Position numbers and translations under genes: made by a program. From Escherichia coli (GTDB lineage: Bacteria > Pseudomonadota > Gammaproteobacteria > Enterobacterales > Enterobacteriaceae), in NCBI RefSeq assembly GCF_003334405.1, contig NZ_QOWM01000005.1: 64,000 bases of DNA. One strand, written 5' to 3'. The notes below the pieces were generated by a model. It did no database searches and was not told the origin of the DNA. It worked only from the letters and a program-made list of their open reading frames with translations. Position 1 is the stretch's first letter, and every line of letters begins with the position of its first letter. This document shows positions 1 through 7,225 of the stretch, in pieces.

Positions 1-453
1 GAACTCGTTGATTTTGCCTGCACCTAACAGTTGGATCAGCTCCGCCAGCGCATTGTGATAAATATCGTAATTACGTTTGATCTCTGCCGCTGCGGCGGTG
101 CTCTGACGCGGGTCACGCGGCAACGCTTCGTAATCCGCCCAGTTTTTTTCCGCCTGTTTCAGCGAAATACTGGCACTCTCCATCAGCTCAGCAACGGTTG
201 AACCGCTACCAATATTATTCTGATCCATCATGTAGCGGATACCCGCGCGGTTGAGGGTGTTACGCGTCTGCAACAACGCGACCCAGCTGCCATTCAGCGT
301 GGATTGCTGCTGGCGAATGGTTTGTAAAACAGTGAAATTTTCTTTGTCATTCTTTAAGGCATTAAAGAACAGACCGCCTGATGTCAGTTGTAAAAGGCCA
401 AAAACGGCCAAAACCAGCAGTAAGCTGGTCACAATTTTGATACGTTTTAACAT
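1..453 (-). CDS. tsr: methyl-accepting chemotaxis protein I (serine sensor), N-terminal part; gene continues beyond window start
   Basis: Reverse translation from 453 gives [40 protein letters not shown]..., recognisable as the Tsr N-terminus; no stop before position 1. Confidence 0.85.
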
Positions 454-483
454 GGTTTCTCTTTCCTGTGGACCGATGCAAGA

Positions 484-510
484 TTTTCGGCCAGGAAAGG
501 AAAAACTTTA
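484..510 (-). promoter_or_regulatory. sigma-28 (FliA)-type promoter upstream of tsr
   Basis: On the minus strand reads TAAAGTTT-N11-GCCGAAAA, matching the class 3 flagellar promoter consensus TAAAGTTT-N11-GCCGATAA. Confidence 0.55.
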
Positions 511-601
511 TGAATATCCCGCGGAGATTACGCCGAGTAATTTTATTCACACTCTGAATTTAAAAAGCCATTATTTACATAAATTACTCACAATATAAAT
601 A

Positions 602-617
602 TGTGATATGAATCACA
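602..617. promoter_or_regulatory. CRP-like binding site in the tsr/btsT divergent intergenic region
   Basis: TGTGA-tatgaa-TCACA, perfect match to the CRP core consensus, embedded in a longer palindrome 597-623. Confidence 0.5.
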
Positions 618-681
618 TATTTATCGTCACTTAAACGACGCCTTTGCCGCTCAACCGCAAAACTGACCGCTTACATCCCTA

Positions 682-710
682 AAATAACCACTCAGTTATT
701 TACCTTACTT
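682..710 (+). promoter_or_regulatory. BtsR (YehT, LytTR-type) direct-repeat binding site upstream of btsT
   Basis: ACCGCTTA-N13-ACCACTCA, matching the recalled motif ACC(G/A)CT(C/T)A repeated with a 13 bp spacer. Confidence 0.5.
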
Positions 711-829
711 TACGCGCGCGTAACTCTGGCAACATCACTACAGGATAGCGGTCAATTTACCTCCTCAAACGCAACGCAAACCTAGAACGGCTTCGGCCAA
801 CTATTAATCAATACATGCCAGGTTTTACT

Positions 830-2980
830 ATGGATACTAAAAAGATATTCAAGCACATACCCTGGGTGATTCTCGGAATCATCGGTGCATTCTGCCTCGC
901 GGTAGTTGCATTACGTCGGGGGGAGCACGTCAGCGCCCTGTGGATCGTGGTCGCCTCTGTGTCGGTGTATCTGGTGGCGTATCGCTACTACAGTCTGTAC
1001 ATCGCCCAGAAGGTGATGAAACTCGACCCCACGCGCGCGACGCCTGCGGTTATTAACAACGACGGTTTGAACTACGTTCCGACCAACCGTTACGTGTTGT
1101 TTGGTCACCACTTCGCCGCTATCGCCGGTGCTGGTCCGCTGGTGGGTCCGGTTCTCGCCGCGCAGATGGGCTACCTGCCTGGCACGCTGTGGCTGCTGGC
1201 GGGGGTCGTGCTGGCCGGTGCGGTTCAGGACTTTATGGTGCTGTTTATCTCCTCTCGCCGTAATGGCGCATCTCTTGGTGAGATGATCAAAGAAGAGATG
1301 GGACCAGTACCGGGGACTATCGCGCTGTTTGGCTGTTTCTTAATCATGATCATCATCCTCGCCGTCCTGGCGCTGATTGTGGTTAAAGCCCTGGCCGAAA
1401 GTCCGTGGGGTGTCTTCACCGTTTGCTCAACCGTACCGATTGCGCTGTTTATGGGTATCTACATGCGCTTTATTCGTCCGGGGCGTGTGGGTGAAGTCTC
1501 TGTCATTGGTATCGTGCTGCTGGTTGCCTCTATCTACTTCGGTGGCGTGATTGCTCACGATCCGTACTGGGGTCCGGCACTGACCTTTAAAGACACCACC
1601 ATTACCTTCGCGCTGATTGGCTATGCGTTTGTTTCCGCACTGCTGCCAGTGTGGCTGATCCTCGCACCGCGCGACTATCTGGCAACCTTCCTGAAAATCG
1701 GCGTTATCGTCGGCCTGGCGCTGGGTATCGTGGTGCTGAACCCGGAACTGAAAATGCCTGCCATGACCCAGTACATTGACGGTACTGGCCCGCTGTGGAA
1801 AGGCGCTCTGTTCCCGTTCCTGTTCATCACCATCGCCTGTGGTGCGGTATCTGGCTTCCACGCGCTGATCTCTTCCGGTACGACGCCAAAACTGCTGGCT
1901 AATGAAACCGACGCGCGTTTCATCGGCTACGGCGCAATGCTGATGGAGTCCTTCGTGGCGATTATGGCGCTGGTTGCTGCGTCCATCATCGAACCGGGTC
2001 TTTACTTCGCGATGAACACCCCGCCTGCTGGCCTTGGCATCACCATGCCTAACCTGCATGAAATGGGGGGCGAGAACGCGCCGATCATCATGGCGCAGCT
2101 GAAAGACGTTACCGCACACGCGGCAGCGACCGTCAGCTCCTGGGGCTTCGTGATTTCGCCAGAGCAGATCCTGCAAACCGCGAAAGACATTGGTGAGCCT
2201 TCTGTCCTGAACCGTGCAGGTGGTGCGCCGACGCTGGCGGTAGGTATCGCTCACGTGTTCCACAAAGTGCTGCCGATGGCTGACATGGGCTTCTGGTATC
2301 ACTTCGGTATTCTGTTCGAAGCACTGTTCATCCTGACCGCGCTGGATGCGGGTACCCGTTCTGGCCGCTTTATGCTGCAAGACCTGCTGGGTAACTTCAT
2401 CCCGTTCCTGAAAAAAACCGACTCTCTGGTTGCCGGTATCATCGGTACTGCGGGCTGTGTGGGTCTGTGGGGCTACCTGCTGTATCAGGGCGTGGTCGAT
2501 CCGCTGGGCGGCGTTAAGAGCCTGTGGCCGCTGTTCGGTATTTCCAACCAGATGCTGGCAGCCGTAGCGCTGGTACTGGGCACCGTTGTGCTGATTAAGA
2601 TGAAGCGCACCCAATACATCTGGGTAACTGTTGTTCCGGCTGTATGGCTGCTTATCTGCACCACCTGGGCGCTGGGCCTGAAACTGTTCAGCACCAACCC
2701 GCAGATGGAAGGCTTCTTCTACATGGCAAGCCAGTACAAAGAGAAGATTGCTAACGGTACTGACCTGACGACGCAGCAGATTGCCAACATGAACCACATC
2801 GTTGTGAACAACTACACCAACGCAGGTCTGAGTATTCTGTTCCTGATTGTGGTGTACAGCATCATCTTCTACGGTTTCAAAACCTGGCTTGCGGTGCGTA
2901 ACAGCGACAAACGTACTGACAAAGAAACACCGTACGTTCCAATCCCGGAAGGCGGCGTGAAGATCTCTTCGCACCACTAA
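830..2980 (+). CDS. btsT: pyruvate/H+ symporter, CstA family
   Basis: ORF 815..2980; start placed at MDTKKIFKHIPWVILG to give 716 aa; polytopic membrane protein recognisable as YjiY/BtsT. Confidence 0.9.
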   Translation: MDTKKIFKHIPWVILGIIGAFCLAVVALRRGEHVSALWIVVASVSVYLVAYRYYSLYIAQKVMKLDPTRATPAVINNDGLNYVPTNRYVLFGHHFAAIAGAGPLVGPVLAAQMGYLPGTLWLLAGVVLAGAVQDFMVLFISSRRNGASLGEMIKEEMGPVPGTIALFGCFLIMIIILAVLALIVVKALAESPWGVFTVCSTVPIALFMGIYMRFIRPGRVGEVSVIGIVLLVASIYFGGVIAHDPYWGPALTFKDTTITFALIGYAFVSALLPVWLILAPRDYLATFLKIGVIVGLALGIVVLNPELKMPAMTQYIDGTGPLWKGALFPFLFITIACGAVSGFHALISSGTTPKLLANETDARFIGYGAMLMESFVAIMALVAASIIEPGLYFAMNTPPAGLGITMPNLHEMGGENAPIIMAQLKDVTAHAAATVSSWGFVISPEQILQTAKDIGEPSVLNRAGGAPTLAVGIAHVFHKVLPMADMGFWYHFGILFEALFILTALDAGTRSGRFMLQDLLGNFIPFLKKTDSLVAGIIGTAGCVGLWGYLLYQGVVDPLGGVKSLWPLFGISNQMLAAVALVLGTVVLIKMKRTQYIWVTVVPAVWLLICTTWALGLKLFSTNPQMEGFFYMASQYKEKIANGTDLTTQQIANMNHIVVNNYTNAGLSILFLIVVYSIIFYGFKTWLAVRNSDKRTDKETPYVPIPEGGVKISSHH

Positions 2981-2988
2981 CCGTGTTT

Positions 2989-3016
2989 AGCCCCGCTTCG
3001 GCGGGGCTTTGTTCTT
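2989..3016 (+). terminator. rho-independent terminator after btsT
   Basis: GC hairpin agccccgc-ttcg-gcggggct followed by a T-rich run. Confidence 0.55.
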
Positions 3017-3029
3017 ATCAGAGTGAACT

Positions 3030-3233
3030 ATGTTTGGTAACTTAGGACAGGCAAAAAAATATCTCGGCCAGGCGGCGAAGATGTTGATTGGCATTCCAGA
3101 CTACGACAACTACGTCGAGCATATGAAGACCAACCATCCCGACAAGCCGTACATGAGCTATGAAGAATTCTTCCGCGAACGCCAGAACGCACGCTACGGC
3201 GGCGATGGTAAAGGCGGTATGCGCTGTTGTTAA
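3030..3233 (+). CDS. yjiX: small conserved protein YjiX (DUF466 family)
   Basis: 67 aa ORF immediately downstream of btsT, same strand; conserved partner of cstA-like genes. Confidence 0.8.
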
Positions 3234-4536: not shown

Positions 4537-4808
4537 AGCGATTCCTCTCTTTACGATCTGCTTTTCGTGCACTGATGATTCGAATAATTTCATTTCCGCT
4601 TTCGAAACGGATGGTATGCGCAACCAGAATAACCACGATGCCGTAATGTCTGCCAGCGATACTCACCGTTTTCTATGCGTTCTTGCTGTGACAAATGTTG
4701 TGGATCATCAAACAATAACACCGCATCTTCAAAGCGGATGCCATGTTTCACCCGATTACTTTTGGCCTTGTTTTCATCCCATTCAAACTCCATTGGCATA
4801 ATTGCCAT
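4523..4808 (-). pseudogene. BrnT-like toxin (DUF497 family) interrupted by a +1 frameshift
   Basis: N-terminal frame (ORF 4590..4826) gives MEFEWDENKAKSNRVKHGIRFEDA...WQTLRH then runs out of frame; the C-terminal part GIVVILVAHTIRFESGNEIIRIISARKADRKERNRYEHG is in another frame ending at 4523. Confidence 0.55.
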
Positions 4809-4997
4809 CCCTAATTGTATATACAAAAATGTATCTACAATTATTCTGCAATTATAGCGTTGATGTTGGAAATAGCATCACGTTTCGAATAATCAACCAT
4901 GAAATTGACAATGAGTAAGTTGGACTTGATTCATCCAATAGAATTTCTCGCCTGACATGGCACACTAAACACCTCGCTGTCGGGTAATGACTCCAAC

Positions 4998-5501
4998 TTA
5001 CTGATAGTGTTTTATGTTCAGATAATGCCCGATGACCTTGTCATGCAGCTCCACCGATTTTGAGAACGACAGTGACTTCCGTCCCAGCCTTGCCAGATGT
5101 TGTCTCAGATTCAGATTATGTCGCTCAATGCGCTGAGTGTAACGCTTGCTGATAACGTGCAGCTTTCCCTTCAGGCGTGATTCATACAGCGGCCAGCCAT
5201 CCGTCATCTATACCACGACCTCAAAGGCCGACAGCAGGCTCAGAAGACGTTCCAGTGTGGCCAGAGTGCGTTCACCGAAGACGTGCGCCACAACCGTCCT
5301 CCGTATCCTGTCATACGCGTAAAACAGCCAGCGCTGACGTGATTTAGCACCGACGTAGCCCCACTGTTCGTCCATTTCAGCGCAGACAATCACATCACTG
5401 CCCGGTTGTATGCGCGAGGTTACCGACTGCGGCCTGAGTTTTTTAAGTGACGTAAAACCGTGTTGAGGCCAACGCCCATAATGCGTGCACTGGCGCGACA
5501 T
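4998..5501 (-). pseudogene. insB: IS1 insB reading frame with an internal in-frame stop
   Basis: ORF track splits it into 5208..5501 (97 aa) and 4998..5207 (69 aa) in the same frame, separated by a TAG codon directly followed by ATG. Confidence 0.55.
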
Positions 5502-5695
5502 CCGACGCCATTCATGGCCATATCAATGATTTTCTGGTGCGTACCGGGCTGAGAGGCGGTGTAAGTGAACTGTAGTTGCCATGTTTTACGGCAATGAGAG
5601 CAGAGATAGCGCTGATGTCCGGCAGTGCTTTTGCCGTTACGCACCACGCCTTCAGTAGCGGAGCAGGAAGGACATCTGATGGAAATGGAAGCCAC
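5420..5695 (-). CDS. insA: IS1 InsA
   Basis: 91 aa [43 protein letters not shown]... Confidence 0.9.
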
Positions 5696-5751
5696 GCAAG
5701 CACCTTAAAATCACCATCATACACTAAATCAGTAAGTTGGCAGCATTACCC

Positions 5752-5847
5752 GGATTCCATAATGATTCCACGCCCCGTTATGACAAATCTGCCGCCGATC
5801 TTGCCTGGCAAAGGACACTGAAATGGTTCGATAAATATCTCTCCTGA
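5752..5847 (+). pseudogene. 3' remnant of a dienelactone-hydrolase-like gene truncated by IS1
   Basis: Frame directly abutting the IS1 end reads [35 protein letters not shown], resembling the C-terminus of DLH-family hydrolases; only 31 codons. Confidence 0.3.
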
Positions 5848-5992
5848 TAGGTTTATCTCTTACGGGATTACGTCTTAAACAAGCATGAAAAAATAGCGTG
5901 CGCAAAAGTCGTTCTTTGCCTAAAATATCGCTATATATGGCGATATATAGCGAATAAAGTGAACGATGAATAACCATTTTGGTAAAGGCTTA

Positions 5993-7225
5993 ATGGCGGG
6001 ATTAAAAGCAACGCATGCCGCCACGCTGTTTTTCCCGATGGAGTTGATTTTGTATGATTTTGCCGCGTACCTGTCGACGGACCTGATTCAGCCGGGGATC
6101 ATTAATGTGGTCCGTGATTTTAATGCCGATGTCAGTCTGGCCCCGGCAGCCGTCAGTCTCTATCTCGCGGGCGGTATGGCGTTACAGTGGCTGCTGGGGC
6201 CGCTTTCCGACAGGATTGGCCGCAGGCCGGTGCTGATTACCGGGGCGCTAATATTTACCCTTGCCTGCGCTGCGACAATGTTCACAACGTCTATGACACA
6301 GTTTCTTATCGCGCGTGCAATTCAGGGCACCAGTATCTGTTTTATTGCCACCGTTGGTTATGTCACGGTGCAGGAGGCGTTCGGCCAGACAAAAGGGATC
6401 AGGTTGATGGCGATTATCACCTCCATCGTACTGATTGCGCCGATTATTGGCCCGCTTTCCGGCGCAGCTCTGATGCACTTTGTGCACTGGAAAGTCCTTT
6501 TTGCCATCATTGCGGTTATGGGGTTTATCTCATTTGTTGGCTTACTGCTGGCGATGCCAGAGACGGTGAAGCGCGGCGCGGTTCCATTTAGCGCCAAAAG
6601 CGTCTTGCGCGATTTTCGTAATGTCTTTTGCAATCGGCTGTTCCTCTTTGGCGCAGCAACCATCTCTTTAAGCTATATCCCAATGATGAGTTGGGTGGCT
6701 GTCTCGCCGGTGATCCTGATCGACGCGGGCGGCTTAACAACTTCGCAGTTCGCCTGGACACAGGTTCCGGTGTTCGGCGCGGTGATTGTCGCGAATGCCA
6801 TCGTGGCGCGTTTCGTTAAAGATCCAACCGAACCGCGCTTCATCTGGCGTGCCGTACCCATTCAACTGGTCGGCCTCGCGCTGTTGATTATCGGCAATCT
6901 GCTGTCACCGCACGTCTGGCTGTGGTCGGTGCTGGGCACCAGTTTGTATGCTTTCGGGATTGGTTTGATCTTCCCGACCTTATTCCGCTTTACGCTTTTT
7001 TCCAATAACTTACCGAAAGGGACCGTCTCCGCATCGCTGAATATGGTGATCCTGATGGTGATGTCTGTCTCGGTCGAAATCGGCCGCTGGCTGTGGTTTA
7101 ACGGCGGTCGCTTGCCGTTTCATCTGTTAGCCGTCGTGGCGGGCGTTATCGTCGTTTTCACCCTGGCAGGATTGCTTAATCGCGTGCGCCAACATCAGGC
7201 TGCCGAGCTGGCGGAGGAGCGGTGA
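5993..7225 (+). CDS. mdtM: MFS multidrug efflux transporter
   Basis: ORF 5966..7225; 12-TMS MFS protein recognisable as MdtM (YjiO); start chosen to give 410 aa. Confidence 0.85.

Follow-up and report, generated by a model that had tools for sequence, protein, structure and literature searches.

In the window, by which we mean the whole 64,000-nucleotide stretch of Escherichia coli DNA analysed here, a short open frame of 96 bp (5752–5847) has IS1 on its left and the efflux-pump gene mdtM on its right; in frame 1 it is translated into 31 residues followed by a stop. The initial annotation tentatively read this frame as the tail of a dienelactone hydrolase (DLH) gene of which IS1 had removed most, and the locus thus raises the question of whether a hydrolase gene once resided here and was eroded by the insertion sequence, or whether the fragment reached this position by another route. 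The reading that we favor, and to which we assign a probability of about four in five, is that 5751–5847 is a non-functional 3′ remnant within a 263-bp patch of DNA duplicated from the native yghX-yghW locus and situated between a defective IS1 and mdtM. The features to which the text refers are as follows.

4970–4982, no strand: left IS1 junction, from which the native DNA of strain N17 leads into the 5′ end of an mrr-like restriction endonuclease gene.
4983–5750, minus strand: IS1, IS1F-like, 768 bp, with terminal inverted repeats at 4983–5005 and 5728–5750.
5751–5847, plus strand: yghX′ fragment, consisting of the last base of the presumed catalytic His codon, then 31 codons and a stop; a pseudogene remnant.
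5848–5965, plus strand: duplicated yghX-yghW intergenic DNA that includes the yghW promoter, a palindrome and an altered Shine-Dalgarno sequence, placed by alignments.
5966–6013, plus strand: yghW codons 1–16, now the N-terminus of the chimeric mdtM open reading frame.
6014–6020, plus strand: CATGCCG, a 7-bp microhomology (yghW codons 17–19, mdtM codons 8–10) and the illegitimate-recombination joint.
5966–7225, plus strand: chimeric yghW′-′mdtM open reading frame of 419 aa with MdtM residues 8–410 intact; the start chosen by PGAP is an internal ATG at 5993.

The assignment of the tail to the C-terminus of a DLH-family protein is borne out by several comparisons. The 31 residues match positions 263–292 of the 292 positions in the NCBIfam model NF041440 ('YghX family hydrolase') with E = 3.2e-14, the last 30 residues of PDB entry 4ZV9 are identical to the tail peptide, and in NZ_CP042893.1 and NZ_CP027366.1 these 96 bp bear the PGAP label 'dienelactone hydrolase family protein; incomplete; missing N-terminus'. 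The blastx-type comparison with DLH proteins that had been proposed therefore finds significant similarity to a hydrolase C-terminus, and a search of related genomes for an intact homologue, also proposed, finds an intact yghX at its native locus in strain YJ1. Intact YghX is a protein of 295 aa in which the Pfam DLH domain (PF01738) occupies residues 84–294 with E = 6e-48; the sole portion kept in the fragment is residues 265–295, approximately the last 10% of the protein. The pseudogene is already known from RefSeq annotation, and events of this type are also well known.

What remains of the hydrolase is far from complete. The whole-protein cutoff of NF041440 is 460 bits, which intact YghX passes with 585, whereas the fragment scores 52.8. 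There is no complete alpha/beta-hydrolase domain in the fragment, nor is there a catalytic triad (Cys in a G-x-C-x-G motif, Asp and His); alignment places both the Asp region and the GFCYG motif that carries the nucleophile upstream of the break, so that neither is present. In native yghX the sequence GTT AAT CAC GGA TTC CAT encodes N-H-G-F-H, and the edge of the patch splits the His codon such that its third base, 5751, is all that is left of it in the window. We take the cut His of H-G-F to be the catalytic residue on the basis of the conserved DLH motif and an alignment to 3F67. The fragment has no start codon or translation signals of its own, and the sole in-frame start is a TTG within the IS1 inverted repeat. 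With its His codon split and the nucleophile, the Asp and the remainder of the fold all missing, the fragment is unable to act as a hydrolase, and on its sequence we regard it as being without hydrolase function.

The fragment does not stand by itself. Positions 5751–6013 constitute a 263-bp second copy of the native yghX-yghW locus, to which they are 98–99% identical, and alignment to the YJ1 native locus and to K-12 mdtM shows that the copy contains the yghX tail, the entire 118-bp yghX-yghW intergenic region and the first 16 codons of yghW. The left edge of the patch coincides exactly with the IS1 terminus, yghX-derived DNA beginning at 5751, and at the right edge position 6013 is of yghW type and position 6021 of mdtM type. 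The complete YghW protein (DUF2623, 95 aa) is thus not encoded here; codons 1–16 are present, or 18 codons when the shared HA is counted. The fragment therefore resembles native yghX and the YghX family in having an identical C-terminal peptide and nearly identical DNA, but it differs in retaining the last 10% only, in lacking the start, nucleophile and catalytic His, in lying 1.42 Mb from the native locus, and in adjoining mdtM.

When a 250-bp query starting at 5751 was compared with complete E. coli genomes, native yghX-yghW was matched in 5423 of 5426 at 96.8–98.8% identity, and a second site next to mdtM was matched in about 670 of the 5426. Strain CFSAN061772, which carries the patch, still has the native gpr-yghX-yghW-hyb locus, and from this one genome examined we conclude that the patch is a duplication. 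At positions 5940 and 5942 the ectopic copy has G/G, as does the native allele of YJ1, whereas the native allele of CFSAN061772 has A/A, which indicates that the patch allele has moved between strain backgrounds or arose in a different one. We also note that native yghX is a frameshifted pseudogene both in K-12 (L010, 4357–5001) and in CFSAN061772 (L011, 48586–49470), the YJ1 gene being intact; yghX is decaying at its home locus too.

The gene order in the window is yjiX-yjiA, brnA-brnT, IS1, the patch, mdtM and yjiN. All genes from mrr to rpnD are absent, and this is an 'empty' immigration control region with no restriction genes, a configuration whose first description, for E. coli C, is credited to Sibley and Raleigh in 2004 (NAR 32:522, cited in PMC12707154). 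The continuity of the DNA at the left IS1 junction into an mrr-like gene in strain N17 indicates that, to the right of that junction, the restriction cluster has been lost in its entirety. The earlier statement that K-12 has nothing similar at this position is correct: ytiE and rpnD lie upstream of K-12 mdtM, and the K-12 yghX pseudogene is 1.42 Mb distant. The yjiA-brnAT-IS1-mdtM layout is present in 1110 of the 5426 complete genomes, the yghW′::mdtM joint in 662 and the IS1::yghX′ joint in 664; both joints appear to be present together in all of the approximately 662 fusion genomes, as judged from the counts rather than from lists of the genomes. The closest complete genome is that of E. coli 89-3156, at 99.7%. 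In the neighboring toxin-antitoxin pair, brnT (minus strand, 4590–4826) has an 11-bp deletion (ACCAGGCCGAT) at 4646/4647 relative to 89-3156 and EC19 that frameshifts the toxin gene; the brnA antitoxin reading frame is still open.

A sister allele is present in approximately 450 further genomes, EC19 and EBJ001 among them; its IS1 is the same, as is the nonsense codon in insB (see below), and its left flank is identical. In the sister allele the IS1 end abuts native mdtM upstream DNA, of which about 270 bp including ytiE are kept, and MdtM starts MPRFF(T/A)RH. Where the window has the 263-bp patch, the sister allele has 291 bp, namely 270 bp of upstream DNA including ytiE plus mdtM codons 1–7. 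Comparison of the two alleles suggests that the patch replaced native mdtM upstream DNA, rather than that IS1 eroded a resident gene. Of the proposal that IS1 had removed most of a gene, the part that stands is that a yghX tail lies at the IS1 edge, but this tail forms the left-hand part of the 263-bp ectopic copy rather than an isolated resident remnant. The further idea that a complete gene was once resident here finds no support, as a longer yghX beside the fusion is present in none of the 5426 complete genomes.

The IS1 element itself is typical in its dimensions, with a length of about 768 bp and imperfect terminal repeats of ∼23 bp that show no mismatches to the IS1 end pattern, and it is the only IS1 copy in the window. 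It does bound the tail as had been described, stopping at 5750, one base (5751) before the frame. Its insA frame is intact, whereas insB, in comparison with the intact IS1 of strain STK78-E, has a TGG to TAG nonsense change at 5208–5210; the element thus lacks a full pair of insA and insB′ frames, from which the IS1 transposase is produced by a −1 frameshift, and PGAP notes an 'internal stop'. It is probably immobile without help in trans owing to this nonsense codon, which is common to both alleles of the locus. The IS1 sequence is identical in L001 and L006 and has 3–4 differences in 768 bp from that of the sister allele, and more than 2400 records contain an IS1 copy with an identity of 99% or higher over a 121-bp stretch. 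A simple insertion of IS1 leaves a target-site duplication of 8–9 bp. Here the two flanks differ (left ...CGCTGTCG, right CGGATTCCA) and there is no such duplication, which fits a rearrangement after insertion.

Two further observations concern IS1 ends. In STK78-E the native yghX tail contains an independent, intact IS1 (L008, 2609–3376), which lies 60 bp further downstream than the break in the window, has the same orientation and is flanked by a 9-bp target duplication (AGGACACTG); the 3′ end of yghX may be a recurrent IS1 target. In the native flank of the window, 58 bp to the left of IS1, 17 nt at 4908–4924 are 88% complementary to the inner IS1 repeat (4992–5008), and this match may derive from an earlier IS1 end or may be due to chance.

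Three accounts of the fragment that make no use of a duplicated patch can be considered together. Gene turnover is known to be concentrated in the immigration control region (PMC12707154), and a foreign dienelactone hydrolase gene could have entered the restriction island by horizontal transfer and then been cut by IS1; however, the fragment together with the next 166 bp is 98–99% identical to E. coli yghX-yghW, including non-coding DNA and the yghW start, and a foreign origin is rejected as highly improbable. We give an equally slim chance to the view that a 36-codon open reading frame at 5737–5847, beginning at the TTG in IS1, is an expressed and functional small protein or a residual hydrolase. 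The frame is open and there is a promoter-like site at 5737–5766, but the product would cover 30 of the 292 profile positions and reach 52.8 of the 460 bits, with no GFCYG motif or rest of the fold and with the His codon cut, and the lone synonymous SNP between copies of the yghX′ tail, at 5829, is uninformative on selection. That the arrangement is an assembly artefact, or the frame a chance one, has a negligible probability and is rejected, given that both joints are found in about 662 independently closed genomes and that the IS1::yghX′ joint is found in five independent metagenome contigs. In all, seven metagenome contigs have the exact fusion joint; five of these have the IS1 joint, one starts within the patch, and the seventh (L014) has a different structure.

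This seventh contig bears on another explanation, in which the yghX tail was truncated in situ. A complete yghX would have stood upstream of yghW′::mdtM, perhaps as the joint of a transient tandem duplication of 1.42 Mb that arose when CATGCCG in yghW and in mdtM took part in an unequal exchange. An adjacent deletion promoted by the resident IS1 would then have taken out one entire repeat unit together with yghX up to its last 97 bp. An IS1 terminus exactly at a joint without target duplication is the classic signature of an adjacent deletion, and this is what the window contains; moreover, yghX/yghW and mdtM are on the same strand in K-12, and the predicted joint is thus gpr-yghX-yghW′::mdtM-yjiN. 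Contig L014 (OKOP01000776.1, 1–6142) shows the predicted layout, with gpr′, a full-length yghX and yghW′::mdtM-yjiN-yjiM-yjiL, and without IS1. Against this, the gpr-yghX-yghW′::mdtM layout occurs in none of the 5426 complete genomes, the insB nonsense codon of the resident IS1 means that a deletion would need transposase in trans, and L014 is a mosaic, as a short-read chimera would be. The yghX-yghW part of L014 is a B2-type native allele that is 99.1–99.3% identical to Nissle 1917 and ST131 and mismatches the patch at 10 positions, the L014 mdtM has 100.0% identity to that of a patch-allele strain across 1205 bp, and the switch between the two falls in 62 nt that are identical in the native and ectopic sources. 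L014 is probably a short-read chimera of two co-resident strains, although if real it would be a tandem-duplication joint. We consider truncation in situ to be unlikely, albeit far from negligible.

For the duplicated patch, the origin that we put forward, with a likelihood a little short of even, is repair of a break to the right of IS1 in the sister allele, templated by an IS1 copy in yghX. The sister allele would itself have resulted from loss of the restriction cluster through a classical adjacent deletion by IS1, so that the window allele would need one further event. A break would have occurred just to the right of IS1 in the sister allele, and strand invasion by one broken end would have engaged another, near-identical copy of IS1 located at codon 264 of yghX. 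DNA synthesis would then have continued for ∼263 nt into the yghX-yghW flank, and the new strand would have rejoined the other broken end at CATGCCG. The order of events, with the sister allele first and the patch allele second, is the one that parsimony alone favors, and a search for an ancestor in which IS1 is simply inserted at the left site, with the restriction cluster still complete, had no hit.

The left joint is exactly at the IS1 terminus and so was made by transposase at some time. Several features fit templated repair: the patch (263 bp) and the lost tract (291 bp) are of similar size, as a single short repair tract would produce; the resident IS1 carries the same defect in both alleles; STK78-E has an insertion in the yghX tail in the same orientation; and near-identical IS1 copies are numerous in the sequence records, as described above. 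The model is weakened by the absence of its proposed template, as a synthetic junction query for IS1 at codon 264 of native yghX (GGGGTTAATCACGGATTCCA joined to GGTAATGACTCC) had no match in the 5426 complete genomes.

The locus can be set beside three known types of rearrangement. As in IS1 adjacent deletions and the 'empty' E. coli region, IS1 replaces mrr-hsd-mcr-rpnD between yjiA and mdtM, and the rearranged DNA begins exactly at the IS1 end with no target duplication; unlike in these, 263 bp of DNA from a distant locus have been added between IS1 and mdtM in the window, which a simple deletion cannot yield. Homology-facilitated illegitimate recombination, or microhomology template switching in break repair, is known in Acinetobacter, Streptococcus and yeast. 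The window is similar to such repair in that one side has long homology (IS1, 768 bp) and the other has 7 bp, and in that a flank was captured and a similar length was lost; it differs in that the mechanism is deduced from the product alone, the donor IS1 at yghX codon 264 not having been seen among the genomes searched. Replacement of promoters or fusion of genes by insertion sequences at efflux-pump genes is a general phenomenon, and here the mdtM promoter, 5′ untranslated region and seven codons have likewise been swapped, next to an insertion sequence, for the promoter, ribosome-binding site and 16 codons of another gene. The difference is that the new signals of the window come from a captured chromosomal fragment and not from the insertion sequence.

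The consequences of the patch are thus to be sought in mdtM. Codon 16 of yghW is joined in frame to codon 8 of mdtM, and the reading frame is open in each copy examined. MdtM residues 8–410 align without gaps, with 9 substitutions relative to K-12 and 1 relative to strain 89-3156, and the product is a full-length orthologue of MdtM, a 12-TM multidrug efflux protein of the MFS, under which name (mdtM) PGAP also lists it. All that is replaced is the seven residues before HAATLFFPM..., which by analogy with MdfA presumably precede the first transmembrane helix. The chimeric pump is probably functional, to judge by this conservation. We take MdtM to be the efflux pump for bile salts and for growth at alkaline pH as which it has been described.

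As the native promoter and leader, ytiE and codons 1–7 of the gene are lost, mdtM would need either the yghW signals or transcription from IS1, and from the arrangement of these signals we predict that it must be expressed from the yghW promoter and start, or by read-through out of IS1. The yghW promoter identified by Genomic SELEX is TTGCCT-17-GACAAT (PMC3946193). In the captured sigma-70 promoter the −35 element is TTGCCT at 5916–5921, and the −10 hexamer at 5939–5944 is GGCGAT in place of the GACAAT of K-12; positions 5940 and 5942 are within this hexamer, and the patch form is the weaker allele. G to A changes at 5956 and 5958 convert the yghW Shine-Dalgarno sequence from GAGG to AAAG in all three ectopic copies examined and in none of the five native ones, and these changes may fine-tune expression of the mdtM fusion, or may reflect a switch to the start chosen by PGAP, the ATG at 5993.

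Other sequence elements lie near these signals. A 26-bp palindrome at 5928–5953 (TCGCTATATATGGCGATATATAGCGA) overlaps the yghW −10 region and was carried with the patch; it looks like the operator of some regulator. Across the joint of the IS1 end and yghX′ there is a sigma-70-like sequence, TTGGCA-18-AATGAT (5737–5766), directed towards mdtM, which is a possible hybrid outward promoter. A SNP at 6042 (codon 6041–6043) gives Glu in the window MdtM, in contrast to Ala in each other copy compared. The site corresponds to Ala17 in K-12 numbering and to residue 26 of the chimeric reading frame, five residues before Asp22; we assume that the Ala17/Asp22 region is in the first transmembrane helix and that Asp22 is essential. 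An 80-bp query over the fusion joint had a 100% match in none of the 662 complete genomes with the joint, and the Ala to Glu change thus appears to be private to the window strain.

A broader interpretation can be offered tentatively, and it is doubtful as a whole. In about 12% of sequenced E. coli, MdtM may have been rewired to the yghW promoter and start with removal of its native regulation and of the small gene ytiE, the Shine-Dalgarno changes would be later tuning, and the allele would exemplify natural break repair in which a distant IS flank is copied and the repair is closed at a microhomology. No description of the yghW-mdtM fusion was found in the literature searched on yghX, yghW, mdtM and yjiO, a search that did not extend to Sibley and Raleigh 2004, and the papers and reviews on the immigration region that were searched have no mention of yghX, yghW or the fusion.

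The hydrolase remnant itself is a dead fragment and is unimportant. The pair of alleles, which have the same IS1 and differ in the presence or absence of the patch, constitutes a clean natural record of the remodelling of a restriction-island border by an insertion sequence and microhomology, and the 263-bp duplicate can mislead short-read assemblers, as L014 probably illustrates. Above all, the window reveals a common natural allele of mdtM that has the promoter, leader and N-terminus of another gene, and results obtained in K-12 on the regulation of MdtM and on its efflux phenotypes may not hold for about one in eight E. coli strains.
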